From Candidatus Sumerlaeia bacterium (GTDB lineage Bacteria; Sumerlaeota; Sumerlaeia; MVZB01), in NCBI GenBank assembly GCA_039683515.1, contig JBDKRG010000059.1, positions 105,003 to 169,002 on the forward strand: 64,000 bases of DNA, given 5' to 3'. The notes beneath the pieces were generated by a model. The model was given only the letters and a program-made list of their open reading frames with translations, was not told the DNA's origin and did not search any database. The translations under genes were made by a program, and so were the position numbers. Every line of letters begins with the position of its first letter. The first letter of the stretch is position 1. Shown here piece by piece: positions 1,712 through 59,432 of the stretch.

Positions 1712-2101
1712 ATGGAGCAATACCTGGGAACCGGAAGGCGCAAATGCTCGGTGGCGCGCGTCTACCTTCGGCCCGGCCGCGGCCGCATCGTCATCAATGG
1801 CAAGGCCCCCGAGGTCTACTTCGCCAAGCACCCGACCATCGAGGACACGTTCCGCGCCCCGCTGCGCGAGACGCACACGATCAGCAAGTATGACGTGATC
1901 GTCACCGTCGACGGCGGCGGCGTGCACGGCCAGGCCGACGCGATCCGCCACGGCATCTCCCGCGCCCTCCAGGTCGCCAACCCCGCCCACCGTCCCGTCC
2001 TCAAGTCGCTCGGGTTCCTGACCCGCGACCCGCGCGAGAAGGAAAGGCGCAAATACGGCCTGGTCAAGGCCCGCAAGGCGTTCCAGTTCTCCAAGCGCTA
2101 G
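1712..2101 (+). CDS. rpsI: 30S ribosomal protein S9
   Basis: '[26 protein letters not shown]...[19 protein letters not shown]...[25 protein letters not shown]' is canonical S9, including the C-terminal KR. Confidence 0.97.
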
Positions 2102-2124
2102 GCCGAACGCAACACTCATTACAA

Positions 2125-2156
2125 AGCCCCGGCTCCAGCCGGGGCTTTTTGTTTTT
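2125..2156 (+). terminator. rho-independent terminator after rpsI
   Basis: Stem AGCCCCGGC / GCCGGGGCT with loop TCCA, followed by TTTTTGTTTTT. Confidence 0.85.
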
Positions 2157-2321
2157 ATTGTACCCATGCCGCGCAGGGGGTCGCCGACGAGCGCGAGCTC
2201 ATGGGACGCGGATGACGCGGATCTGACGGATTTTCCCGCACGGTTTATTTACATACTTCTTACATCCGCGTGACAAGCTTTGTGGCATGATTGCTTCAGG
2301 CTTGGGAGAAGGGAGATTAGC

Positions 2322-2798
2322 ATGAAACGCTTCATTTTCGTCGGGCTCGGACTGATGTGGCTGTGCGGCTGCTCCGGCAGCGCGGACCGGATCGAATCGT
2401 CCCGGAAGACGGACGCAACGCCCGCGCCGGAAACAACCCCGGCTCCGGCGCCAATCCTCAATTCGCTCCAGATGGCCGCCAGCGAAACCTATCGGAAATA
2501 CATGACGGCTGCCGTCGGCGCCGGCGCCAAACACCCGGCCACCGAGATCCCGCCGGCATATTGGGCGGACGCCATCAAAGAACTCAAGCCGATCCGGGTC
2601 TATACCCACCGGGTCAACATCGTCGTCGTTCAGCGCGTCAATGAAGAGGTCGAGGAAGGCAAGTATATCTACATCCCGATTTCCTCGTACCTGCCCGAGA
2701 ACGGCGTGGACGGGTTCACGGTGACGCCCAACCCGCATCAGGGCAACACGTACCAGCTCGGCACCGGCGTCTTCGACTACAGCCGCCGCCTAAAATAA
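2322..2798 (+). CDS. hypothetical lipoprotein
   Basis: The start was chosen at the ATG preceded by GGGAGAAGGGAG. 'MKRFIFVGLGLMWLCGCSGS' is a signal peptide plus lipobox (L-C-G-C). Confidence 0.6.
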   Translation: MKRFIFVGLGLMWLCGCSGSADRIESSRKTDATPAPETTPAPAPILNSLQMAASETYRKYMTAAVGAGAKHPATEIPPAYWADAIKELKPIRVYTHRVNIVVVQRVNEEVEEGKYIYIPISSYLPENGVDGFTVTPNPHQGNTYQLGTGVFDYSRRLK

Positions 2799-2830
2799 GC
2801 CCCTATTTTTAATATTGAGGCACTCCTCGC

Positions 2831-2889
2831 ACTCGTGCTCGTGCTCGTGCGTCGTGCTCGTGCGTCGTGCTCGTGCTCGTAATCGTAAC
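2831..2889 (+). repeat. hexamer composite repeat (CGTGCT)n(CGTAAT)n, copy 1
   Basis: actcgtgctcgtgctcgtgcgtcgtgctcgtgcgtcgtgctcgtgctcgtaatcgtaacc. It lies in a convergent intergenic spacer. Confidence 0.9.
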
Positions 2890-3032
2890 CTGGCGCAGCC
2901 AGAACCAAATTGCCGTTCCTTAAGAACCGCGTCAGCGGTTCCGAAATCATCGGATTTTTTCCGTGTCCTCTGGATTTCTGTGACCTCTGTGTATCGAAAA
3001 TCGAATCGCCCTGGTCCATCGCGCAGGACGCG

Positions 3033-4889
3033 CTACTTGACGTAAACCGACAAATCCTTCCCCTTCCAAGCCGCCGTCCACCCCGGTCCCGCGATTTTGT
3101 CGACGTTGCGATCCATCAGGTTCAGCACGACGAGCGCCTGGGCGTCGAACGGCTCGCGGCGCGGGATCAGGTTGCGGTCGCGGCCGTTGTCCTCGAGCAT
3201 GTGCTCGATCCTCACCTGCCCCGCCTCGGGCTCGCCCAGCATCGTCCAGACGGGGTACTCCCACGTGTCGCCGCCGAGAACGAGACCGACGCGCGCGATC
3301 CCTCGCTCGCGAATCACGTTCGTGACCGCCTCGTACTGCCCGCGCCAGTCGGGCTGGGCGATGAACACGAGTTCGCCCGGCGGCGAGGCGAAGATGTTCG
3401 GTTTCCCGAAGAGCGGCCGGAAGTGGTTCCAGCCGAGCCACCAGGTTGAGGCGGCGATGATCACGATCATCGCGCCCGCGGCAAGCCGGCGGAAGCGGGT
3501 CTCGCCCAGCATGAGGCCCGCCAGCGGCGACCACAGCACAAAGAGCGGCAACTGAAGGCGGCTGTGCCACGGCTGCCACTTCAGGTAGAAGCAGAAGATC
3601 AAGGCGCCGCAGATCGCCACGGCCGCCACCGCCGCGCGGCCGCCCCGGGGGCGGGTTTTGACCAGCCAGGCGAGGCCGGCGAGGATCAGGATAAAATGCA
3701 GCGGGTTGCCGGCCTGGTCCTCGTTCGTGGAGAGCTTCAGGATCCGGAACCTGTCGCGGAGGAATGTGGTCGCGGGGTCGTCGGGATCGGCGCCGATCGC
3801 GCGGTGCGCCATGCGGACGGCGTTTTCGGTCTTCCGGTTCACGGACTCCCACGGCGTCGACAGGTGGATGGCGGCGTTGCGCATGAGGTTCGAGAGGATC
3901 GTGCGCGGCCCGTGGGTCTCGTTGTTGTAGGAGAAGAGGTTGGCCTGGTGCAGCTGGCCCGGGCCGAGCGGGTCCCCATAGCGGCCGTAATTGCGCGCCC
4001 AGTGGCCGGCGTTCAGAACCAGGACGACCAGCGCGACGATCGCCAGCTGACGCAGGCGTTTTTCCCCGATAAACCGCGCCAGAATCCAGACGCCGAGCGG
4101 GGCCGCGAACAGCCAGGCCGTCCCCTTGGTCAGCAGCGCCAGGCCGAGGCAGGCGCCGATCATGACCGGCGAGGATCCCGGCTCGAGCAGCAGCGCCGCG
4201 AGGCAAACCAGCCAGAACGCGGTGACATAATCGTTCTGCGTCGAGGTCGACTGGAGGATGCCCATCGGCAGGGTGGCGCAGAACACGGCGGCGGCGATCT
4301 GGCCGCGAACGGACGCGCCGAGCCGGCGCGCGATGCGCGAAACCACGATCGCCGAGCCGACCATCGCCGCCCACTGGACGAGGCTGACGAGCCGGTCGCC
4401 GCCGGCCAGGAGCTTCAGATGCAGGATCGTCATCTCGGCCCAGGGTGGCTGATACAGCTGGCGGTCGTTGCTGGTCGGGTAATGCGCGAGCGAGCGGTTC
4501 TGGATCCAGTGCGACACGCGCCCGAGGTGATACGTCATCGAGTCCCAGTTGTTGGGCGGGGCGATCAGATCGATGAACAGCGTGACAAACGCGATGCAGG
4601 CGATGGCCGCCAGGAGCGCTCCGGCGAACGGGCAGGCGGGCCGTTGCGCCGGCGCGACCGGCTTCCACGCGCGGATGGCGAAACCGGCGGCGGCGATCGC
4701 GGCAACGGCCCAGACGGCGAGGATCGGGAAGAGCGCGAGGGCGTGGAGGCCGCTCAGCGCCTCGGACGCGATCACGACGCAGACGGCGACGGCGGCCGCC
4801 GCGCGGATGAGCGCCATGCGCACATCCCCGGACCGGCCGAAAGCCAGCCACAGCATGGCGAAAACGAGGAACGGGATGAAACCAGGCAT
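3033..4889 (-). CDS. polytopic membrane protein, GT-C-fold glycosyltransferase-like (ArnT/PMT/PIG-V style)
   Basis: About 12 hydrophobic segments. It has a periplasmic-loop motif 'PPNNWDSMTYHLGRVSHW' reminiscent of the acidic-loop motif of GT-C enzymes, and a ~110-aa soluble C-terminus. Confidence 0.5.
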   Translation of the reverse strand: MPGFIPFLVFAMLWLAFGRSGDVRMALIRAAAAVAVCVVIASEALSGLHALALFPILAVWAVAAIAAAGFAIRAWKPVAPAQRPACPFAGALLAAIACIAFVTLFIDLIAPPNNWDSMTYHLGRVSHWIQNRSLAHYPTSNDRQLYQPPWAEMTILHLKLLAGGDRLVSLVQWAAMVGSAIVVSRIARRLGASVRGQIAAAVFCATLPMGILQSTSTQNDYVTAFWLVCLAALLLEPGSSPVMIGACLGLALLTKGTAWLFAAPLGVWILARFIGEKRLRQLAIVALVVLVLNAGHWARNYGRYGDPLGPGQLHQANLFSYNNETHGPRTILSNLMRNAAIHLSTPWESVNRKTENAVRMAHRAIGADPDDPATTFLRDRFRILKLSTNEDQAGNPLHFILILAGLAWLVKTRPRGGRAAVAAVAICGALIFCFYLKWQPWHSRLQLPLFVLWSPLAGLMLGETRFRRLAAGAMIVIIAASTWWLGWNHFRPLFGKPNIFASPPGELVFIAQPDWRGQYEAVTNVIRERGIARVGLVLGGDTWEYPVWTMLGEPEAGQVRIEHMLEDNGRDRNLIPRREPFDAQALVVLNLMDRNVDKIAGPGWTAAWKGKDLSVYVK

Positions 4890-4974
4890 CAGTTCACAAA
4901 TTTCAATGATCGATCCGATCCATCGGTTCGAGTTGTGTTAAGCCCCAAATCGCATTCCGCATTCGTCTTGCAAC

Positions 4975-5007
4975 AATCCGCAATCCGCAATCCGAAATCC
5001 GCAATCC
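4975..5007 (+). repeat. heptamer tandem repeat AATCCGC x ~4.5
   Basis: aatccgcaatccgcaatccgaaatccgcaatcc. It abuts the stop codon of the 5007..5894 gene. Confidence 0.9.
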
Positions 5008-5894
5008 TAAAGCGCGAGTCCCCAGAGGCCGACGGTGATGCCGGCGCCGAGCATCTCGCCGAAGAGGATCAGCAGCGCGATCGGGATGAACTGGATCGCG
5101 CCCTGGCGCCGGCGATGCTCGCGCACGCTCGCCTGCGCGAGCATCCCGTACATGAACGGCAGGATGAGGCCCAGCATGACCCGCGCCAGCAGGGTGGCGA
5201 TCGTCTCGTTGCGCAGCGAGCCGATCATGGCGCGCATGCCGAGGGGCATGTAGACCACGCCGGTCACGATCGAAAACAGGATGAAGACGGCGCGCAGGGC
5301 CACGCCGATGCACACGAACCGGCCAGCGCGCAGGATGCCCTCGTCCCCCTTCTCCTTCTTCCAACACGCAAGCTCGTTGAGGCCGAGCATCGCGGCGTGC
5401 ATCAGGATCGCGCCGCAAAGCAGCCCGCCGCCGATGGAGAAAAAGATCGCCGGCCGGGGCAGCAGGACGCGCTCGGGCCAGCCGGGATATTTCTGCACGA
5501 AAAACAGGCTCAGCGCCCAGGCGGCCGCCGCGCTCAGGCCGAGCTGAAACAGCAACGTGCCGCCGCGCAGGATGCCGTGCCGGCCGGGATGGCCGCTCAT
5601 GCTGCGCGCCACGACCGCCGACCACGCCAGCCCGCACCCCGCGCCGATGGCGAGGATCAAGGACTTCTCGAACGGCGCGATCGCGCGCCACGCGTGCATC
5701 AGGAGCGACATGGCTGCGACCGTCACGAGCGCGAAGAGGCCGCCGACGACGGCGCCCGGCCGCTGCTCGTCGCGCCTGAGCGCGAAACTGAACAGGGCTC
5801 CGCCGAGCGCGATTTCGAACAGGAAGATCGAGAGGGCGATACGCATGGAACCGGCGACTCGTGGGGTAAAGGGGGGCTGGACAGCGGCGGACAA
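5007..5894 (-). CDS. hypothetical polytopic membrane protein
   Basis: Eight or more hydrophobic helices and no recognisable motif. The start is uncertain (TTG at 5894 or ATG at 5846). Confidence 0.5.
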   Translation of the reverse strand: MSAAVQPPFTPRVAGSMRIALSIFLFEIALGGALFSFALRRDEQRPGAVVGGLFALVTVAAMSLLMHAWRAIAPFEKSLILAIGAGCGLAWSAVVARSMSGHPGRHGILRGGTLLFQLGLSAAAAWALSLFFVQKYPGWPERVLLPRPAIFFSIGGGLLCGAILMHAAMLGLNELACWKKEKGDEGILRAGRFVCIGVALRAVFILFSIVTGVVYMPLGMRAMIGSLRNETIATLLARVMLGLILPFMYGMLAQASVREHRRRQGAIQFIPIALLILFGEMLGAGITVGLWGLAL

Positions 5895-7102: not shown

Positions 7103-10100
7103 GTGGCCGACTTGCAACGTGCTGTTGTTTTTCCAATCCTGATCCCGCTCGGGACGACCGCCCCGAGTTCACGCCGGACGTTCGCAACCTATACGCTGAT
7201 CGCGATCAGTTTCTTTGTTTTTCTAGCAGGTTTCAGATCCGCTCTCGTCAGCCAGGCGCTCGCGTTCTACACGAACGACGACTGGTATCGATACCTGACC
7301 TATGCGTTCGTGCACGAGTCGTCGTGGTCGGGACTGGCGCACCTGTGCATGAACATGTTCTTCCTGTGGATTTTCGGCAGCCCGCTCGAGACGCGGATGG
7401 GCTGGTGGCGCTTCATCCTGCTCTACCTGGCGTGCGCGGCGGCGGGGGCGGCGGTGTGGGACCTGTTCCAATCGCTGCCCAACGTCAAGCTGATCGGCTC
7501 GTCGGGGGCGGTGTGGGGGTTGATCGGCTCGTATCTCATCCTGTGGCCGTTTTCGTCGGTCATCTGCTACTTCGTCCTGACGGCCCTCTTCTTCCCCTTT
7601 TACGCGACGACCTACCACGCGCTGGCCGTTTTCTTCCCGATCGTCTATTACGTCCTGGCCGGGCTGATTTACTTCATGGCGTGGAGGTTCGACATCAAGC
7701 TGCCGTTCGGGCCCGTCGCCTGGCTGGCGCACCTGGGCGGCATCGCGGCCGGCCTGGGCCTGACGGCGGCGTTCTACGGGTTCCACGGCTTCACCATCGA
7801 GGCCGACGAGGAGGAGTCGCTCCAGAGGAAGCTCCAGCTCCGGATCGACCGGCAGAGGCTCGGGTTCGCCCCCGACGGCCCCAAGGTCGACGTTGCCGAG
7901 CCGCGGCCGGTCAAGCCGATGTCGGCCAGGCTGATGCCGCTGCATGAGGCGGTCGTCAACGGCGACCGCGAGCGCGCCGTCAAGCTCTGGCACGAGCTGC
8001 TCAAGCCGGCGGAGGGGGCCTCCCTCCTGCCCGGGCCGCAGATGGACCTGGCGCGCATCCTGATCCGCGAGGGCGAAACCGGCGAGGCGACCGAGGCGCT
8101 CGAACGGCTCGTCAAGGCGCATCCGGAGTGCGAACTGGCGACGATGGCGCGGTTCGAGCTGGCCACCCTGCTGGTCGATGCCGCCGAATTTGCCCGGGCC
8201 GCCGCGTTCCTGCGCCAAATCGAGTCCAACGCGCCGCTCGACCTGAGCCGGGAGATCAAGCAGCTTCGGCGCCGGATACCGGACCCGTTTCTGGAAGAGC
8301 CGGCCGCCCCCCGGGCCTCGACGGAGCTGTTCGAACCCGGGTCGGAGGAGACCCCCGGCTCCCCGACGATCGACGATTTCATCCGCGCCGCGGGGGGTGG
8401 GCCTTCCCGCAGCGCCGACAGCCTGTTCGGCAACCCCGAAGACACCGACGCGTTCAAGATGCAGGTCGGCAAGGACGCACCGCCCCAATCCAGGCACCGC
8501 CTGGACCAGACGACGCCGCCCATTTTCCTCGACGCCGAGGAGAAGAAGGCCAACGAGCTGTTCGGCGACCCGAACGATACCGACGCGTTCAAGATGAACA
8601 CCGGCAAGGAGATCCCGCTCCAGCCCGGCCTGATCCACGAGGACACCACGCCGCCGGCGATGCTCGAGGCGGAGGAGGCGCGCGCCAAGGACCTGTTCGG
8701 CGACCCCGAGGACACCGGCTCGTTCCAGATGAACGTCAAGCCGGATGCGCCCAGGTCCGTGCCGCTGACCCGGGACCAAACAGACCCGCCGATCCTGTTC
8801 GATACCGATCCGGGCGAGGCGGCGCCCCCGCCCGATCCGCGCCCGGCCCGCGGGAGCGAGCCGCTCGAAGCCGCCGGCGAACTGTTCGGCAACCCCGAGG
8901 ACACCGGGGCGTTCGAGATGAACATGAAGCCGGATGCGCCGAGGCTCAAGCCGCTCACCAGGGACGACACCCGGCCGCCGATCATGCTCGATACCAACCC
9001 GGACGAGGCGGCGCCCCCGCCCGATCCGCGCCCGGCCCGCGGGAGCGAGCCGGACCAACCGGCGCCCTCGCCCGAGCCGCTGGCGCCGATCTTCCTCGAC
9101 GACGACGATTTGCTCAGCGTCCCGCCCCCGGAGGAGAAGGCGGCCGAGCCGTCACCGAAGCCGTGGGAGCCGAGACCGGCGCAGCCCGAGCCGGCCGCGC
9201 CCGAGCCGAAACCGCGGCCGGAAAAATTCATTTTCCGCTCGTCGATCCTGCCCAAGCACGAGATCAAGCAGCCGCTGGCGCCGGTGCAGTCGAGCATCAA
9301 CCTGGAGCCGCTCGACATCCAGCTGGAACGGCTCAAGACCTCGATCACGCCGGCGAGCGGCCCCAGCCCCGAGGTCTTCATCGGCGACATCACGAATTTC
9401 AGCCCGCAGCCGGAGACGAGCGACACGCACGACAAGCGCCTCGTCCTGCGGCGTGGGGTGAAGTACGCGGCGATCCTGACGCCGGGCTGCCCGGTCGACA
9501 TCCCGCTGGTGTGCGCGGCCATCGCGCCCGTGCTGGGGCTCAGCCCCGACGGGACGCACCACGCGCTGCTGCGCCGGCGCGGGATCCTCGCCGAGGATCT
9601 GACCGCGTCCGAGGCCGAGGCGCTCGCCAAGGACCTCAGCGCCAACGGCCAGTCGGTCTCGGTCGTGGCGTGCGACGACCAGCTCGAGTTCGGACCGCCG
9701 CAGGACGTCCTGACCTACAGCGACGAGGGGGCGTCGGCGCGGTTCTCGATTTCCAACGAGGCCCTGACCTGCCGCTGGAGCCAGGCCGTATTCTTCGCCG
9801 CCGGGCTCGTGCGGCTCGACCCGACGGCGCCCGGCCGCGCGCTGATCGACCTGTTCTTCGCGCAGCCGCGCGCGCACCTGCGGATCTGGGAAAACACGTT
9901 CGTCTACCCCGACCGTGTCGTCGTCGCGGCCAAAGGGATGGAAAACCAGCGCCAGAGCGATTCCGACCACGGCTTCCTGCGCCGCGAATGGTGCTTCCGC
10001 TCGATGGCGGCCGAGATCGACACCCACGGCCGCAACGCCGTCCGCACGCGCAGCTTCAGCTCGTGGCTCGACCTGGCGACGCCGCTGCCGACGGCCCATT

Positions 10101-17420: not shown

Positions 17421-17626
17421 TTGGAACCCCTTTCGGAGAATCGTTCAAAATCGGGCAAAATCATTCAAAAATTCGAAACAAAGCTAATGAAAATACATAT
17501 TCATAATAAATTATCCCAACGCCGGCCGCCGCGCGCAACGAATGGCTTTTGGAATCATTGAAATATTCGATCTTTATTTTCCTCGTCATTGTTTCGAATT
17601 TCCGAATGATTTTGACCGATTTTGAT

Positions 17627-22604: not shown

Positions 22605-22675
22605 TTCGTGCTCGTGCGTCGAGCTCGTGCTCGTGCTCGTGCTCGTAATCGTAATCGTAATCGAAAATCGATCGA
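22605..22675 (+). repeat. hexamer composite repeat (CGTGCT)n(CGTAAT)n, copy 2
   Basis: ttcgtgctcgtgcgtcgagctcgtgctcgtgctcgtgctcgtaatcgtaatcgtaatcgaaaatcgatcg. It begins 28 nt upstream of the smpB start codon, on the opposite strand. Confidence 0.92.
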
Positions 22676-22700
22676 ACCGAAAAACGGTTCTGATATCGCA

Positions 22701-27600: not shown

Positions 27601-27667
27601 AATGGCATCACGGCTCGGGCGAAATCGAATCAGTTTGCCTTTGATCGCCTCCCGCGATAGCCTATGG

Positions 27668-27750
27668 GTCTGAGCTGGGGGTGCTGCGCCGAACGGCGCG
27701 GCTGAGAGAGTCCCTTCGAACCTGATCCGGGTAATGCCGGCGCAGGGAAA
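27668..27750 (+). promoter_or_regulatory. TPP (THI-box) riboswitch aptamer
   Basis: gggggtgc...ggCTGAGAgagtcccttcgaACCTGATCcGGgTAATgCCggCGcAGGGAA matches the conserved TPP aptamer cores (CUGAGA; ACCUGAUCUGGAUAAUGCCAGCG). It lies directly upstream of thiC. Confidence 0.88.
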
Positions 27751-27780
27751 GCTTTCCGGCTTTCTTTCCCCCACACTTAA

Positions 27781-29706
<1,926 letters not shown>

Positions 29707-35856: not shown

Positions 35857-35968
35857 GATGAATGATGAATGATGAGAGATGAATGATGAATAAGAGAAAA
35901 GAAATTCGCCTTCATCCTTCAAGCATTCATATTCTTTCATCATTCCTCATTCATCATTCATCATTCAG
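35857..35968. repeat. inverted arrays of heptamer GATGAAT
   Basis: Left arm is gatgaatgatgaatgatgagagatgaatgatgaat. Right arm is ttcatcattcctcattcatcattcatcattc. The right arm includes the last codons (NDE-stop) of the 35954..36718 gene. Confidence 0.85.
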
Positions 35969-37483: not shown

Positions 37484-37538
37484 AACTCGTGCTCGTGCGT
37501 CGTGCTCGTAATCGTCATCGTAATCGTAATCGAACGCG
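37484..37538 (+). repeat. hexamer composite repeat, copy 4
   Basis: aactcgtgctcgtgcgtcgtgctcgtaatcgtcatcgtaatcgtaatcgaacgcg, 25 nt upstream of the amidohydrolase start (opposite strand). Confidence 0.9.
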
Positions 37539-37576
37539 ATTCCAATGATTTTGGGGTGAGGGCGAAACAAGGCGGA

Positions 37577-37630
37577 TGGGGTGGATCGATTTTCGATTAC
37601 GATTACGAGCACGAGCACGAGCACGACGCA
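37577..37630 (-). repeat. hexamer composite repeat, copy 5 (inverted relative to copy 4)
   Basis: cgattttcgattacgattacgagcacgagcacgagcacgacgcacgagcacgaa is the reverse complement of the family consensus. Confidence 0.9.
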
Positions 37631-37664
37631 CGAGCACGAAAAAAGGCCCACGCTTTTCGGCGTG
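37628..37664 (-). terminator. rho-independent (bidirectional) terminator after the 37690..40488 gene
   Basis: AAAAAAGGCCCACGC-ttttcg-GCGTGGGCCTTTTT. Confidence 0.85.
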
Positions 37665-43508: not shown

Positions 43509-44825
43509 TTACCAGGTCTTGGCCATCGCGGCCATTGCATCGCCGGCGGCTTCGAGCGTCTGCTCGACCTCGCGGTCGCCGTGCGCCGTCGAGACGAACA
43601 TCAACCCGGCCGGCGTCGAGCGGATGCCGCGTTCCTGGAATTCCCGGAACAGGCGCCGCGTCCTCGCCGTGTCGGTCTGCGCGTAGGTGCGCGAATCGAC
43701 GACGGGCGCGGCGTCCGGCGGCAGGAACGACACGTGCATGATCGGGCCCGCCCCGCGGACGGCCAGCGGCAGCTCGAGCTTGCGGCCGATCTCGCGGAAA
43801 CCCTCGCGCAGCCGCTCGGCGACGCCGTGCGCCTGGTTGAGCAGCATGGCGTCGTCGGCGCTGAGCATGTTGAGCGCCGCCTTGACCGCGGCCATCATCA
43901 TCGGCATGGCGTTGTAGGTGCCGGCGTGGACGGTCTTGAGCGCCCCGATCCGGTCCATGTACTCGGCCTTGCCCGCGAACGCGCCGACCGGCATGCCGCC
44001 GGCGATCGCCTTGGCGAACGTGGCGAGGTCGGGGGTCACGCCGTAGTAGCCCTGGCCGCTGGAAAGCGCCAGGCGGAAGCCGGTGATGACCTCGTCGAAG
44101 ATGAGGAGCGAGCCGTGCTTGTCGCAGACCGCGCGCAGGCCGGCGAGGAAACCTTCCTTGGGCGCGACCGCCCCGTTGTTGGCCATCAGCGGCTCGGTGA
44201 TGATCGCGGCGATCTCGCCGCCGTGCTCGGCAAAAACCTGCTCCACGAGCGCCGGGTCGTTCCACGGGATGACGATCAGGTTCTTCGCGTCGTCGGGGTT
44301 CATCCCCTCGCTGCTCGGGATGACGTTCGGGCGCTCGCGCGGGCCGGCCTTGTCGAGCGGGCAGCCGTTGCTCCACGCGATGTTGTCGAACCAGCCGTGG
44401 TAGCCCGACTCGAACCTCAGGATCTTGCGGCGGCCGGTGACGGCGCGCGCCAGCCGGAGCGCGGCGTGGACCGATTCGGAGCCGGACGACGTGAACCGCA
44501 CGCGCTCGGCGCAGGGGGTGAACTGGCAAACCAGCTCGGCGGCCTCGATTTCGACCTCGGTCTGGCCCGAGTAGATCAGCCCCTTGTAGAGCTGCTCGGC
44601 GACCGCCTCGATCACCGGCCGCGGGCTGTGGCCGAGCAGCGCCGGCCCCCGCCCCAGCACGTAGTCGATGAATTCGTTGCCGTCGGCGTCCCACACGCGC
44701 GCCCCTTCGCCGCGCGCGTAGAACATCGGGTGCGGGTCCCACATGGCCCGCACGTTGCTGTTGATCCCGCCGGGGATCACGCGCCGGGCCCGTTCGAACA
44801 GCCGTGCCGATTCATCGAATCTCAT
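43509..44825 (-). CDS. class III (GSA-aminomutase-like) PLP aminotransferase
   Basis: The start at 'MRFDES' has SD GGAGGAG. 'IPGGINSNVR', 'GEGARVWDADGNEFIDY', 'SSGSESVHAALRLAR', 'FESGYHGW', 'LIFDEVITGFR'. It is not clearly HemL itself. Confidence 0.75.
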   Translation of the reverse strand: MRFDESARLFERARRVIPGGINSNVRAMWDPHPMFYARGEGARVWDADGNEFIDYVLGRGPALLGHSPRPVIEAVAEQLYKGLIYSGQTEVEIEAAELVCQFTPCAERVRFTSSGSESVHAALRLARAVTGRRKILRFESGYHGWFDNIAWSNGCPLDKAGPRERPNVIPSSEGMNPDDAKNLIVIPWNDPALVEQVFAEHGGEIAAIITEPLMANNGAVAPKEGFLAGLRAVCDKHGSLLIFDEVITGFRLALSSGQGYYGVTPDLATFAKAIAGGMPVGAFAGKAEYMDRIGALKTVHAGTYNAMPMMMAAVKAALNMLSADDAMLLNQAHGVAERLREGFREIGRKLELPLAVRGAGPIMHVSFLPPDAAPVVDSRTYAQTDTARTRRLFREFQERGIRSTPAGLMFVSTAHGDREVEQTLEAAGDAMAAMAKTW

Positions 44826-44932
44826 AATGACTCCTCCACAACTGACCAACGGCCGAATACAAATCCCATTACGGATACAAACAGCAAACAAGCCGAAAGG
44901 AGACGAAACCCGATATGTGCTTAGCTGGTTCT

Positions 44933-45128
44933 AAGCGCTGAAAGCGCGGGAGATTTCAGCCTGGGGTGGAGCGAAGCGTAGCCCCAGGAATAAGGCGTAA
45001 CATTGACAGGAGCGCTGAAGGCGCGAGAGAAACTTATGTCACGCCTTCAGCGCTCGTTATTTCTTCGTCCGACACCTGGGGCTGCGCTTCGCTCCACCCC
45101 AGGCTTAATTCTCTTGCGCCTTCAGCGC
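44933..45128. repeat. ~200-bp composite nested-palindrome element, copy 1
   Basis: Module order: AAGCGCTGAAAGCGCG / CCTGGGG-N15-CCCCAGG / GAGCGCTGAAGGCGCG / CGCCTTCAGCGCTC / CCTGGGG-N15-CCCCAGG / GCGCCTTCAGCGC. The outer, middle and inner pairs are mutually complementary. Confidence 0.9.
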
Positions 45129-45174
45129 ATGATTCAAATCACACGCCAAACGCGTTTCTCGAAACGCGGTCCGC

Positions 45175-46209
45175 TCAGCTCAGATCGATCGCCTTGCCCG
45201 TGCGCTGCGATTCGTAGCAGGCGAGCACGGCGGCGACGGCCTGGCGGCCGTCCCAACCGGTGATCGGCGGTTCCTTGTCGTTGATGATCGCGGCGAAGAA
45301 GGTCTTCAGCAGCCGCGTGAACGACGCGAGGCGGACCTGGTCGAGATAGCCCTTGCCCTTCCAGTCGATCGGCTCCTGAACGGCGATCGTCTCCCACTGG
45401 CCGCCCCTGATGGCCATCTTGGCGTGGCTGTACGAATCGACGTCGAGGAGACCGTCCTGGCAGAAGATCTGGAAGTTGTACTTTTCCTTGAAGCTCGGCG
45501 GCGGCAGCTCGAACGAGTTGAAGATGTATGCGGTCGAGCCGTCGGCCATCTCCATGAGCGCCTCGACGGTGCCGTCCGACGGCAGGTGCGGCATGTAATT
45601 GCGGCACTTGGCGTAGATGGACTTGATTTCCTGGCCGGTGAAGAACCGGATCGAGTCATAGGTGTGGATGCAGTGGCCGAGGATCAGGCCGCCCTGCTCC
45701 GGGTCCAGGTTCCAGCGCGGGACGTTGGCCTTGGCCTCGGGCTCCATGCACAGGCCCCGGATCTGGTGGACCTTGCCGATCTTGCCCGAATCGATCGCCT
45801 CTTTGGCGATGTAATTGCAGATGCGGTGGCGCTGCGTCTGGGCGACGGTGATCTTGACGTTGTTCTTCTTGGCGGCCTCGATCATCTTGTCGCAATCCTC
45901 GACCGTCGTCGCCATCGGCTTCTCGACCATGACGTGCTTGCCGGCGTTGAGCGCCGCCAGGGCGATCCTGGCGTGGAAGAGCTGCGGCGTGGGGGTCAGG
46001 ACGACGTCGATCTCGTCGCTGTTGACGAGGTCTTCCCACCGGTCGTACTGCTTCACCTTGTATTCAGTGGCGATTTCGTCGGCTCCGCGCTCGGCGGATA
46101 CGCCCGTCAGTTGGGCCTCCGGGAGATTCTTGGCGACGCAGGCCGCATAGGTCTTGCCCATGAAGCCGGCCCCGACAATGCCGATTCTCAGCTTTTCACC
46201 GTTGCTCAT
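45175..46209 (-). CDS. Gfo/Idh/MocA-family oxidoreductase
   Basis: 'LRIGIVGAGFMGKTYA' and 'KHVMVEKPMA'. Confidence 0.88.
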   Translation of the reverse strand: MSNGEKLRIGIVGAGFMGKTYAACVAKNLPEAQLTGVSAERGADEIATEYKVKQYDRWEDLVNSDEIDVVLTPTPQLFHARIALAALNAGKHVMVEKPMATTVEDCDKMIEAAKKNNVKITVAQTQRHRICNYIAKEAIDSGKIGKVHQIRGLCMEPEAKANVPRWNLDPEQGGLILGHCIHTYDSIRFFTGQEIKSIYAKCRNYMPHLPSDGTVEALMEMADGSTAYIFNSFELPPPSFKEKYNFQIFCQDGLLDVDSYSHAKMAIRGGQWETIAVQEPIDWKGKGYLDQVRLASFTRLLKTFFAAIINDKEPPITGWDGRQAVAAVLACYESQRTGKAIDLS

Positions 46210-54575: not shown

Positions 54576-56405
54576 ATGCAGATCTTCTTACTATGGCGCG
54601 ACCGCGATGAGCCGCTCGACCCGCGCCGGGTCGAGAGCCGGCTGCGCGGGTTTTATGAGCCGCTCCTGCGCGGGCGGCCCGCCTCGACGCATCTTCGCGC
54701 CGGCGGCGCGTCGGCGGTTTACCTCGAGTTGCCGGTCGACGGCTGGATCCCCCCCTTCCTCGAGCAAACCGAGTCTTCCTGGACGCTGGGGCTGGACTAC
54801 CCGGTCGAGGCGCGGCGCGCGCTCGAGACGCGCGGCATCAAGCCGCGGCCGGGAGGCGTTCTCGCGGCCTTCGCCGACGAACTCGAAAAAGACCCCGCGC
54901 CGCTCCTGCGCGAGGTCTCGGCCCCGTTCGTGATCGCGTGGCGGTCGCGCCGCGACCCGAACGTCCTGATGATCCAGAACGACGGCATCGGGATCGGCCA
55001 GATTTTCGTCTACGACGACGGCCGGCGCTGGGCGGCCTCCAACCGCATCTTCGCGTTCAAGGCGCTGGGGCTTGACGTCAAAATGGAGCCCGCGCAGTGG
55101 GCCACGCAGGCCGTGCTCGGCTGGTTCCCGCTCAACGACACCGGCTACAGGAACATCTCGGTCATCCCCCCGGCCACGCGGCTGCGCGTCGAAGACGGCA
55201 ACGTCGCGGGCGAGACATTCGACGTTCTGGATTTTCTCATGAACGACACCGTGCCGCGCGAGGAGGCGCTCGAGCTCGGCCGCCAGGCGGCGCTCGATTA
55301 CGCCAGGAGCGCGGGCGAGCTGTTCGGCACGGCCTCGGCGGGGCTGACCGGCGGCTGGGACACGCGCGCCGTCGTCTCGTCGTTCCTGGCCGCCGGCGTC
55401 GATCACTTCCGCCTCCACGTGCGCGGCCGCCGCGACGTCGACGACGTCGTCGTCGCCGAGCGCCTCGCGCAGATCATCGGCAAGCCGCTCAACGTCAAAA
55501 CCCGCGGCGGCCTCCCGCCGGCCACAGCCTCAATGCTCGAGAAAAGCATGGACGAGGCGCTGCGCTGGCAGGCGGGCCACGCCGAGTTCAAGGGCGCCAA
55601 GATGTTCCTCAACAGCAACGGCCGGCTCGACGGCGGCTGGGTCAACATCATGGGCCAGCACGGCGCGGTCGGGCGCGGGTTCTACATCGGCCGCACCCAT
55701 GCGATGGAGCTCGACCCGTCGCAGTTCGAGGACAAGCTGCTCGAATACGTCTCGCAGTGGACGCGCTCGTTCATGCGGCCGCCGATGCGCGAGCACGCCG
55801 AGGAGACGATCCGCGCGGCCTACCGCGCCGCCGACCGCCACGGCGTCGAGGGCTACAACCGCCTCGACTTTTTCTACATGTACGAGCGGACGCGGCGCTG
55901 GGCGTCGGGCGGCCAATACAACCAGCCCGGCAAGGTCCTGACGCCGTTCCTCACGCCCGGCTACATCCGCGCCAGCTTCAGCTTCCCCGGCCCCGAGCGT
56001 GTCCTCAACCCGGTGCACCGCTACATCATCGACACGAACATGCCGGTCTGGTCGAAGGTCCCGTTCCACTACGAAGTCACGCCGAAGCTGCGCGACGAGT
56101 GGGCGCGCCAGTGGCGGCGGGCCAGCCGCGGGAATCGGGCGATCGCGCGCTGGCGCATATGGCGGGAGCGGCTCGACGCCATGGCCCTGTTCGGCGGGCA
56201 ACTCAAAAACTACCGCGAATCCGGCCGGCGCGGGTTCAACAACGGCAATTACTGGAAGGCGGTCGGCCGCCCGCTCATCGAGCGCGCGCTGCGCGACGGC
56301 GGCCTGTGGACGGAAGTTTACGATCCGCGGCTGGCGTCGCAGAAGTGGGCCGAGGGCCCCGACGACATCGTGGTCCTGTGGCTACTGGAGAAGATTTGTT
56401 CGTAG
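54576..56405 (+). CDS. asparagine-synthase-related PP-loop protein without the N-terminal Cys nucleophile
   Basis: It starts 5 nt after the previous stop. 'ASAGLTGGWDTRAV' resembles the SGGxDS PP-loop of AsnB-type synthetase domains. The N-terminus 'MQIFLLW' lacks Cys2. Confidence 0.45.
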   Translation: MQIFLLWRDRDEPLDPRRVESRLRGFYEPLLRGRPASTHLRAGGASAVYLELPVDGWIPPFLEQTESSWTLGLDYPVEARRALETRGIKPRPGGVLAAFADELEKDPAPLLREVSAPFVIAWRSRRDPNVLMIQNDGIGIGQIFVYDDGRRWAASNRIFAFKALGLDVKMEPAQWATQAVLGWFPLNDTGYRNISVIPPATRLRVEDGNVAGETFDVLDFLMNDTVPREEALELGRQAALDYARSAGELFGTASAGLTGGWDTRAVVSSFLAAGVDHFRLHVRGRRDVDDVVVAERLAQIIGKPLNVKTRGGLPPATASMLEKSMDEALRWQAGHAEFKGAKMFLNSNGRLDGGWVNIMGQHGAVGRGFYIGRTHAMELDPSQFEDKLLEYVSQWTRSFMRPPMREHAEETIRAAYRAADRHGVEGYNRLDFFYMYERTRRWASGGQYNQPGKVLTPFLTPGYIRASFSFPGPERVLNPVHRYIIDTNMPVWSKVPFHYEVTPKLRDEWARQWRRASRGNRAIARWRIWRERLDAMALFGGQLKNYRESGRRGFNNGNYWKAVGRPLIERALRDGGLWTEVYDPRLASQKWAEGPDDIVVLWLLEKICS

Positions 56406-56537
56406 CCCCGCCTTCAGGCGGAATCCATGAATGTCGTCGGTTTCCCGCCTGAAGGCGCGATGGCGACGAATCCATTTTCGAGAATCCTCTCATACTGCTC
56501 TGCCATATGGCGTATGTTTTGGGATGCAAGCGATCCC

Positions 56538-56736
56538 AAGCGCTGAAAGCGCGAAAGAATACAGCCTGGGGCGCAGCGAAGCGCAGCCCCAGGTAAGCGG
56601 CGCCATATCATTGGAGCGCTGAAGGCGCGGAAGAAGCCGATTTCTCTCGCTCCTTCAGCGCTCCGGTTTGGTGCGGTTCGTGACCTGGGGCTGCGCTGCG
56701 CTTCGCCCAGGCTATGATCTCTTGCGCCTTCAGCGC
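56538..56736. repeat. ~200-bp composite nested-palindrome element, copy 2
   Basis: Same module order and spacing as 44933-45128: AAGCGCTGAAAGCGCG ... CCTGGGG-N15-CCCCAGG ... GGAGCGCTGAAGGCGCGG ... GCTCCTTCAGCGCTCC ... CCTGGGG-N15-CCCAGG ... GCGCCTTCAGCGC. Confidence 0.9.
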
Positions 56737-56770
56737 AAAAAAACTGATCACATGGAGTGGCCGAGTCGTA

Positions 56771-57355
56771 CTAAAAATCGTGGCTGTCGATGATTTGCGT
56801 CTCGAACGCGGAGAGCCGGGTCTCGCCCAGCGGCACGCTCGGGTCGATCCCCGCCTTGCGGTAGAGATGCGCCAGGAACGTCGGCACGTCCCAACCGTGC
56901 TCGCTGGCGACGTCGGGCAGCAGGAGCCCGCGCTGATAATCGTGCTCGATCAGCAGCCCGTCGCGTCCGATCACGATTTCGGCCGGGGAATGAATGCGGC
57001 GGCTCGGCGTGAGGATCGAGAGCTTGAAATCAAGCCGGGCGAGCTCGTCGGGGCGGACCGGATCGAACCGCGGGTCGAGCCGGGCCGCGCGCCACGCGCA
57101 CCTGGCCACCACGCGCGCGACGGGATCCTCGGCGCGGATCTCGCCGAGGCAGCCGCGCAGCTCTTGATTCACGTACACGGTCGTGAACGCCGCGCGCGGA
57201 TCGGCCAGGGCCGGATTCCGCCCGATCGCCTCGTCGATGCAGTCCAGATCGTATCCGGCGGTGTCGCGAACGGACGCCTCGATCGCCGCCCACGCCACCT
57301 CGACAAGGGCCTTCTGGCAGGAAGCATCCAGCAGTTTTTTCTCTTCGCTCATCAA
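56771..57355 (-). CDS. AMMECR1-domain protein
   Basis: 'LRGCLGEI', 'DPRFDPV' and 'LLIEHDYQRGLLLPDVA'. Confidence 0.88.
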   Translation of the reverse strand: MMSEEKKLLDASCQKALVEVAWAAIEASVRDTAGYDLDCIDEAIGRNPALADPRAAFTTVYVNQELRGCLGEIRAEDPVARVVARCAWRAARLDPRFDPVRPDELARLDFKLSILTPSRRIHSPAEIVIGRDGLLIEHDYQRGLLLPDVASEHGWDVPTFLAHLYRKAGIDPSVPLGETRLSAFETQIIDSHDF

Positions 57356-59286: not shown

Positions 59287-59307
59287 AGCGCTTGACGAAA
59301 GTTATCG

Positions 59308-59350
59308 GTTCGTGCTCGTGCTCGTGCTCGTGCTCGTAATCGTAATCGAA
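59308..59350 (+). repeat. hexamer composite repeat, copy 6
   Basis: ttcgtgctcgtgctcgtgctcgtgctcgtaatcgtaatcgaat. Confidence 0.92.
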
Positions 59351-59361
59351 TCAGCACCAGG

Positions 59362-59432
59362 AAATTCGGTGAAAATTCGGTGACAGCGACCGCATTTGTC
59401 TCTATTGAAAATCAATGCGGCCGCTGTCACCG
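59362..59432 (+). other. 11-nt tandem duplication feeding into a 19-bp hairpin
   Basis: AAATTCGGTGA x2. Then CGGTGACAGCGACCGCATT - 17-nt loop - AATGCGGCCGCTGTCACCG, with one mismatch. Confidence 0.85.

Follow-up and report, generated by a model that had tools for sequence, protein, structure and literature searches.

The DNA analyzed here, hereafter the window, is a stretch of 64,000 nucleotides from Candidatus Sumerlaeia bacterium (contig JBDKRG010000059.1, positions 105,003 to 169,002 of the forward strand). It contains two copies of a palindromic element of about 200 bp, copy 1 at 44933–45129 and copy 2 at 56538–56737, both formed by six hairpin modules in identical order. Copy 1 follows the stop codon at 45175 and copy 2 sits between the convergent stops at 56405 and 56771. 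The two copies are 81% identical over about 260 alignment columns; the similarity ends at the outer GCGC hairpins and the flanks are unrelated. In copy 1, the arms 44935–44988 and 45075–45128 are 89% complementary, and the two CCTGGGG-N15-CCCCAGG modules are exact reverse complements save for one base. This pattern is present four times in the window against 0.45 expected. Likewise, 10 perfect mini-hairpins with a 4-bp GC stem and a YTTCR loop were counted against 1.8 expected, six of them inside the two elements. When folded as single strands, the whole elements give a long imperfect hairpin of −137.5 and −140.4 kcal/mol for copies 1 and 2 (z = −14.3 and −11.6, respectively). A sequence-only reading of the window had reported both copies at these positions, their shared module order and the single mismatch of copy 1, and had called for an alignment of the two copies; inspection of the sequence and this alignment bore out the description. 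Its coordinates hold for the core and fall short of the full extent, degenerate terminal repeats lying 7–21 bp farther out.

The conserved unit is a three-hairpin half unit of about 95 nt, and the elements of the window are head-to-head dimers of two such units. It was defined because matches at most other loci covered only one half of the element. Each half unit is made up of a short hairpin of GC stem and YTTCR loop (hp2), a free spacer of about 20 nt, the longer hairpin CCTGGGG...CCCCAGG (hp1), a 12-nt linker and a second hp2. The covariance model built on this hp2-spacer-hp1-linker-hp2 unit (R1) gave exactly four significant matches in the window, which are the four arms. With this model the segment 12226–12296, formerly pointed out as a related fragment, has E>10, and only one GCGCTTCAGCGC-type mini-hairpin is in common; the proposed relationship was not confirmed. 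The features of the two copies, including the ends discussed further on, are the following (L numbers designate loci retrieved elsewhere):

44904–44911, no strand: copy 1, left target-duplication remnant CGAAACCC, placed from the alignment of the right end with intact relatives
44912–44925, plus strand: copy 1, degenerate left terminal inverted repeat GATATGTGCTTAGC, 11 of 13 positions as in the family sequence GTATGTGTTTAGC, counted from 44913
44932–45027, minus strand: copy 1, left half unit (R1 89.8 bits, E=2.8e-19), with outer hp2 at 44934–44949, hp1 at 44960–44988 and inner hp2 at 45010–45025
45038–45131, plus strand: copy 1, right half unit (R1 84.9 bits), with inner hp2 at 45042–45055, hp1 at 45075–45103 and outer hp2 at 45116–45128
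45145–45158, minus strand: copy 1, degenerate right terminal inverted repeat GCCAAACGCGTTTC, aligned column for column with GCTAAACACATAC of L051, L007 and L002
45160–45167, no strand: copy 1, right target-duplication remnant CGAAACGC, from sequence reading and alignment
56410–56772, no strand: copy 2, whole intergenic insert of 363 bp, missing in a related strain of run X6
56410–56486, no strand: copy 2, extra 77-bp segment with an inverted pair of hp2-like mini-hairpins, GCCTTCAGGC ... GCCTGAAGGC
56492–56504, plus strand: copy 2, degenerate left terminal inverted repeat ATACTGCTCTGCC, 11 of 13 positions as in GTACTACTCTGCC
56537–56631, minus strand: copy 2, left half unit (R1 93.7 bits)
56646–56739, plus strand: copy 2, right half unit (R1 79.4 bits)
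56759–56771, minus strand: copy 2, degenerate right terminal inverted repeat GGCCGAGTCGTAC, 11 of 13 positions, its outer end being the empty-site breakpoint

The family had at first not been recognized. Judged by the Rfam matches, each arm (hp1-linker-hp2) is the Acido-Lenti-1 motif, the curated family RF01687. With 38.1 bits (44934–44988, minus strand) and 46.9 bits (56539–56593, minus strand), the left arms exceed the gathering threshold of 37 bits, and the right ones stay below it (45075–45129, plus strand, 28.2 bits; 56684–56737, plus strand, 26.3 bits), yet both right arms have E<=5e-4 in the local Rfam search. As a consequence of these matches, the element can be described as two divergent Acido-Lenti-1 motifs plus two more hp2-type hairpins at the center. 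Acido-Lenti-1 was originally found in Acidobacteria and Lentisphaerae with no function assigned, and the only remark on its context was that some copies are near group II introns (Weinberg et al. 2010, PMC2864571). The original seed alignment holds tandem arrays, with a period of 74 nt in Lentisphaera, and one divergent pair laid out like the element of the window (wf3_AHAI13594_y1, 575–530 on the minus strand and 682–727 on the plus strand). In the searchable literature mentioning the motif, no title or abstract deals with its function or with a mobile-element origin. The Rfam motif and the element of the window share the two hairpins with the conserved GGCU...U.U..CG linker. They differ in that the hp1 of the window has a 15-nt extension instead of a 6-nt loop, an upstream hp2 extends the conserved unit, and the motif is here part of an inverted dimer within an element bounded by terminal repeats. 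In addition, the host range found here reaches Sumerlaeota, Hydrogenedentota and Verrucomicrobiota.

Relatives were retrieved from genomes with an arm-derived pattern, which matched at least 81 loci, and from metagenomes with a pattern of hp1 only, from which 120 loci were taken in. The genome matches belong to Acidobacteriaceae/Granulicella, Sumerlaeota, Hydrogenedentota, Verrucomicrobiota, Lentisphaerota and the unclassified metagenome-assembled genome (MAG) bin.378 (GCA_021372575.1). R1 recognized at least 122 units in the genome loci and 168 further units in 100 of the 120 metagenome loci. Altogether, the family comprises at least about 300 units in at least roughly 200 loci of Acidobacteriota, Sumerlaeota, Verrucomicrobiota, Lentisphaerota and Hydrogenedentota. 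The full dimer of about 200 bp is found in bin.378 at 70–81% identity (L002, L007, L051, L004 and L032), and more distant full dimers are at L055, L071, L036 and L046. Among the listed loci, 42 pairs of neighboring units are head-to-head (−,+), seven are tail-to-tail (+,−) and eight are in tandem. Complete elements measure about 190–330 bp and their interior is modular, with only one hp2 in the 97-bp element of L083, a half unit in L041, L044 and L056, and a dimer in L002, L007, L051 and L151. In a source-like metagenome, the 31-mers of hp1 reach a depth of 2000–5300 against 37–42 for the flanks, about 50–130 times the genome depth. A metagenome search with a pattern from the right end of copy 2 gave zero matches, and no match to the element was found among the PLSDB plasmids in distant mode.

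These data also address whether the element could be a chance palindrome or the product of a local segmental duplication, the condition that had been set for discarding a dispersed family. Only two copies are present in the window, as such an origin would have it, but their flanks are unrelated, hundreds of related units exist elsewhere and the shuffle controls were exceeded throughout. The segmental duplication is therefore excluded and we consider this explanation refuted, the earlier view of a dispersed modular palindrome resembling miniature transposons or bacterial interspersed mosaic elements (BIME) being upheld by the at least about 300 related units outside the window.

Other arrangements of the arm were observed. 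A cyclic unitig of 106 nt, present in runs X1–X4 and compared with window positions 56539–56593, consists of the arm plus a 21-nt spacer, GCAATGGGCACACGGGATCGG, and implies a tandem array of the arm with a 76-nt period somewhere in the community; its depth is 169 in DNA and 4.5–10 in all three metatranscriptomes. Locus L075 (positions 1–2100, an Acidobacteriaceae MAG) carries a satellite-like tandem repeat of about 315 bp in at least six copies, each with one Acido-Lenti-1 arm having a long hp1 extension. In the Granulicella MAG CBDCLP01 (L016–L067), a single unit lies inside a different shell of about 190 bp with the ends TAGAGCCGTTTCCCTCCAGG ... CCTGAATGTAAACAGCTTTA. This subfamily has a distinct terminal repeat of about 29 bp and possibly a TA duplication.

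Strong covariation is seen in the local stems. In the three stems, 97.1% of the alignment cells of the genome set and 98.2% of those of the metagenome set are paired, with 155 and 258 double-change cells, respectively, so that the structure-preserving substitutions proposed as a check are present. None of 500 shuffles reached these values, and they collapsed in slid controls. The hp2 stems lay outside the metagenome search pattern and are thus free of ascertainment in the second set, where GC, CG, UA and AU alternate (for instance 55/51/4/8). The sequence-only reading had offered two folds, one long branched hairpin of the whole element or a set of local hairpins. The first is thermodynamically possible, but the spacers of partner arms (about 20 nt) are only 27% alike, that is, they are not complementary, and therefore what is conserved is the set of local stems and not the long hairpin. 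The hp1 is 94% alike between partner arms. For linker plus outer hp2, the likeness is 0.80 between same-side arms of different elements and lower, 0.70, between partner arms. The inner hp2 of the left side and that of the right side have different stems in L055, L046 and L004, and each of them pairs locally. Taken together, these comparisons indicate that the dimer has been inherited with a left/right polarity and does not arise by fresh inverted duplication.

The covarying hairpins raise the question of whether they act as RNA or DNA. Each arm could be a small RNA or a cis-acting RNA module, as filed in Rfam under the label 'Gene; sRNA' (small RNA), and two arms above the gathering threshold, the covariation, and the presence of the right half of copy 1 and of the tandem-array form in metatranscriptome contigs fit with this. 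However, on the Rfam strand G·U/U·G cells amount to 16 against 31 A·C/C·A cells in the genome set and to 14 against 20 in the metagenome set, so that there is no G·U excess on that strand and at most a weak one on the opposite strand. Moreover, the commonest hp2 loop, CUUCA, would close with a C·A mismatch on the Rfam strand. Wobble pairs being as rare as mismatches, and given the C·A closure, the hairpins fit a role at the level of DNA, or of both strands, better than a strand-specific RNA. In addition, every dimer contains both orientations, neither element has a sigma-70 promoter, no terminator-like hairpin with a U-tract is present in 44750–45250 or 56350–56850, no gene is consistently associated, and there are tens or hundreds of copies per genome equivalent with presence or absence at strain level. 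All these data suggest that RF01687 is a DNA-level repeat more likely than an sRNA gene, and we regard a functional structured RNA as very improbable.

The RNA data consist of metatranscriptome contigs, which are unstranded and break at the repeat. Contigs of the oxidoreductase gene (minus strand), with a depth of 37–52, run to 45084–45140, into the right half of copy 1; this half is therefore transcribed, and read-through can explain it. No RNA contig covers 44818–45078 and the depth of the downstream gene is at most 5. This pattern, together with the position of both copies just past stop codons, would agree with the exaptation of the element at the 3′ end of genes. According to this explanation, whatever their origin, the hairpins stabilize or terminate the upstream mRNA as do repetitive extragenic palindromic (REP) sequences and BIME, copy 1 insulating the oxidoreductase from the aminotransferase gene and copy 2 separating convergent genes. 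But the contig ends coincide with the repeated hp1 31-mers, which explain breaks in such MAG assemblies, and may be assembly breaks, so that no RNA 3′ end can be deduced from them; furthermore, the U-tract is missing and related strains lack either element. We consider exaptation quite unlikely, albeit less so than the RNA gene.

Evidence of mobility comes from the relatives. In bin.378 and Sumerlaeota, cores lie 15–55 bp inside the terminal inverted repeat GTATGTGTTTAGCG and a perfect 8-bp direct repeat is found immediately beyond it. Seven copies have such duplications:

L007: 8-bp duplication AGGCCCGA
L002: 8-bp duplication GCCACGAT
L051: 8-bp duplication CTGAAACC
L044: 8-bp duplication AGGGCGTG
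L041: 8-bp duplication TCCGGGTT
L056: terminal repeat GATGATTATCAAGCTTGCTCAGG, 8-bp duplication TCCCCGCA
L151: terminal repeat CCTTGTCTTCAC, 8-bp duplication GCGCCCAG

When the element and one of the repeats are taken out, a perfect hairpin is restored in L007, L002, L044 and L041 and an imperfect one in L071. As an example, the rebuilt target of L041 is GGCCACAACCCG-TTC-CGGGTTGTGGCC. An automated scan of the ends of 255 units or dimers, in which a 12-nt terminal repeat and a perfect 8-bp duplication were required, identified five positives against none in the shifted controls, and with L056 and L151 it brought in two more types of terminal repeat; duplications of 4–7, 9 and 10 bp were not enriched over these controls. 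This fixed length of 8 bp points to a DDE-type enzyme that would be supplied in trans.

Both copies of the window are decayed. In copy 1 the remnants CGAAACCC and CGAAACGC are equal at seven of eight positions, granting one extra T at 45159, and the right flank can be aligned column for column with an intact right terminal repeat (CACGCCAAACGCGTTTC vs CACGGCTAAACACATAC). CGAAACGC and the terminal repeat form the hairpin CGCGTTTC-TC-GAAACGCG just past the oxidoreductase stop codon. The terminal repeats of copy 2 were compared with GTACTACTCTGCC, a subfamily consensus derived from loose ends in runs X1, X5, X6 and X7, which are the flanks of further copies. An empty site was found for copy 2: in a contig of run X6, TATA alone separates 56409 from 56773. 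The 77-bp segment 56410–56486, located directly past the stop of open reading frame (ORF) 54576–56405, is also missing there. At the site of copy 1, the X6 strain has 95 unrelated letters for 334 bp (44838 to 45173) and the more distant X5 strain has 201 letters for 404 bp. The closest public genome is bin.378, whose AMMECR1 is 69% identical with the same gene order, and which has three other intergenic repeat families in common with the window; the unit is missing from its orthologous spacer.

From these results we think it probable, with a confidence only somewhat above even, that a non-autonomous miniature transposon (miniature inverted-repeat transposable element, MITE) with a hairpin-dimer interior inserted at both loci long ago and has since partly decayed. 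The elements of the family are small, non-coding, multi-copy and present or absent between strains. Their terminal inverted repeats are intact in relatives and degenerate in the window, and the fixed-length target duplication is present in seven relatives, as a 7/8 remnant in copy 1 and not in copy 2. According to this model, complete elements ending in short terminal inverted repeats would be moved by a transposase acting in trans, which would make 8-bp staggered cuts preferentially in the loops of GC-rich intergenic hairpins. Once inserted, the element would be passively co-transcribed with the neighbor gene and its stable hairpins may affect the 3′ end of the mRNA. An unbiased clustering of ORFs at the 81 listed loci found no protein family recurrent beside the units, with just generic response regulators, histidine kinases and ABC ATPases, and this absence of a recurring neighbor indicates that the units are non-autonomous. 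The search for (−)...(+) pairs 0.5–4.5 kb apart had a single result, a 410-aa ORF of L157, which was rejected since it appears to resemble a FAD-oxidase/BBE-type protein and not a transposase.

Several observations weigh against the MITE interpretation. Clean terminal repeats plus duplication were present in just five of the 255 units or dimers scanned, and in seven copies in all with L041 and L044. Neither the window nor 1.2 Mb of sampled loci yielded a transposase or an autonomous element whose ends match. Copy 2 has no target duplication and its left side holds the extra 77-bp segment. Transposition of an element with terminal inverted repeats would not yield the tandem arrays of the arm, with periods of 74–76 nt and about 315 nt, and a cut-and-paste transposon has no need of such strong conservation of internal hairpins. 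Finally, the terminal repeats vary by lineage (GTATGTGTTTAGCG, GATGATTATCAAGCTT, CCTTSTCTTYAC, GTACTACTCTGCC) while the hairpin core is constant, and therefore the core may exist in its own right and have been carried by different shells or inserted into them.

Modular interiors are known in bacterial MITEs such as Correia/NEMIS in Neisseria and BOX or RUP in Streptococcus. The present family is like them in its size (100–330 bp), its non-coding, intergenic and multi-copy nature, its terminal inverted repeats and fixed-length duplications and its variable number of internal modules. Unlike them, the same core is here in shells with unrelated terminal repeats in several phyla, insertion is into hairpin loops and no parent insertion sequence is known. 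Among insertion sequences, IS66 was compared. The passage on its ends in PMC11946415 (citing Ross et al. 2021) gives terminal repeats of 20–30 bp starting with GTAAGCG and 8-bp direct repeats. The 8-bp duplication and the GTA start of the bin.378/Sumerlaeota terminal repeat are alike, whereas GTATGTGTTTAGCG does not begin with GTAAGCG and in other subfamilies the first letters are GAT or CCT. IS66-type genes were not found, and the GTAAGCG start, which, following that passage, would characterize an IS66-derived MITE, is absent. The possible link to IS66 can thus be taken only as a lead.

A different explanation is that the hairpin unit, consisting of a tag and a hairpin, is a single-strand DNA substrate of a REP-associated tyrosine transposase (RAYT) or of a TIRYT, both enzymes of the HUH type, with the dimer as the mobile form and the shells as targets or carriers. 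REP families are found singly, in head-to-head dimers, in clusters or in tandem arrays, their dimers can lie within longer palindromes, and the tyrosine transposases of Acidobacteria (TIRYT) are flanked by double-palindromic repeats (Di Nocera et al. 2013, PMC3733652). The organization of our units fits with that of these families. Moreover, the rarity of wobble pairs on either strand, equal to that of A·C mismatches, agrees with DNA hairpins, and the apex of hp1 reads GCGAAGC on one strand. GCGAAGC is a very stable DNA mini-hairpin. Starting from a Koribacter sequence and its homologues, three Terriglobia loci (L207, L209 and L210) were read. Every RAYT gene read there is flanked by GGTTTGTATCAGG-GCACGGC-TT(T)CA-GCCGTGC, 21 nt and GGGCTTTAGCCCC, in inverted orientation, and the stems of these flank repeats covary between genomes. 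This flank resembles linker plus hp2 of Acidobacteriaceae, GTTATGT(A/G)TCGCGCCTTCAGCGC. The regions with the genes and these bracketing double-hairpin repeats are 2430–3030 of L207, 2425–3040 and 4560–4850 of L209 and 2495–3105 of L210; the inner hairpin of the 3′ end is inside the coding sequence, and L209 has extra repeat copies nearby.

Nevertheless, HUH transposition leaves no target duplication, and clean 8-bp duplications are present in our family. The Rfam model and R1 both miss the RAYT flanks (the best E value, 0.038, is inside a gene), the resemblance rests on a tag of about 10 nt and a loop, and no RAYT-like ORF was found in the window or in the 1.2 Mb of sampled loci (207 sequences) with a regular expression for HUH plus Y..NP..G. 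The GTAG/CGTC tags of the known REP superfamilies are absent as well; hp1 has AGCC/GGCU as its conserved flank, and the linker varies. Movement by a RAYT or TIRYT, the main alternative to the MITE model, is doubtful. The general likeness to REP, BIME and REPIN (paired REP sequences) comprises short GC-rich palindromes with covarying stems, head-to-head dimers of conserved architecture, clusters, dimers within longer palindromes and a location downstream of genes. Furthermore, the RAYT flanks of Acidobacteria carry a tag of the TGTATC type and a hairpin with a TT(T)CA loop, as do linker and hp2 here. On the other hand, our unit has three hairpins and about 95 nt against 20–40 nt, some copies have 8-bp target duplications and no RAYT is tied to the family in the Sumerlaeota lineage. 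With the BIME of E. coli type there is a general similarity in the alternating orientation and the modular linkers, and the arms here differ between left and right. Both mechanisms could also be combined in a two-tier system, in which a hairpin module, moved across phyla by RAYT/TIRYT enzymes of the Acidobacteria type and spread as dimers, would repeatedly come to lie inside unrelated MITE shells, or travel with them, the shells having terminal repeats and 8-bp duplications and themselves targeting hairpin loops; RF01687 would then be a DNA element. This proposal is speculative and, in our opinion, improbable. Integron attC sites, CRISPR arrays, retron RNA and IS200/IS605 ends were considered too and rejected, as the element lacks the boxes, variable spacers or strand asymmetry that define them.

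The window contains other repeats and features. Hexamer blocks, (TCGTGC)n followed by (TCGTAA)n, occupy at least six intergenic sites and are also present in bin.378, including the spacer orthologous to that of copy 2. A 9-mer family (CCATGGGTC and TCCTATGAG variants), likewise intergenic, is common to the window and bin.378. These and the remaining features are listed below, the AT-rich inverted repeat being one that might be another small palindromic element:

2832–2888, 22606–22688, 27787–27845, 37487–37545, 37591–37640 (inverted) and 59298–59367: hexamer blocks; in L083, 1410–1470 and 6765–6805
23527–23574, 43445–43492, 46402–46440 and 59238–59294: 9-mer family; in L083, 920–955
4963–5020 and 35085–35114: heptamer arrays TCCGCAA
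35857–35891 and 35936–35967: inverted pair of GATGAAT/TTCATCA arrays
17445–17500 and 17570–17625: AT-rich intergenic inverted repeat of 56 nt, 82% complementary, with a short GC-rich core
37.7–40.5 and 40.7–43.4 kb, minus strand: adjacent paralogous genes of about 3 kb, with 73–80% nucleotide identity over several blocks
8413–9060: tandem coding repeats of 135/189 bp in another gene
27667–27766, plus strand: TPP riboswitch (RF00059, 69.2 bits), immediately 5′ of the long ORF 27796–29706

The kind of element described here (MITE- or REP-like) is familiar and its hairpin core is the known Acido-Lenti-1 motif. What is new is the larger architecture, that is, the three-hairpin unit, the head-to-head dimer and the terminal repeats with an 8-bp duplication, together with the preference for hairpin-loop targets and the indication that an Rfam 'sRNA' is more likely a DNA-level repeat. 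Targeting of hairpin loops and the presence of one core in unrelated shells should be of interest to specialists in mobile DNA. For annotators, matches to RF01687 in Acidobacteriota, Sumerlaeota, PVC-group and related genomes would be a warning that they probably mark a mobile repeat and not sRNA genes. Finally, these results give a testable identity to an orphan Rfam motif which has been without known function since 2010.

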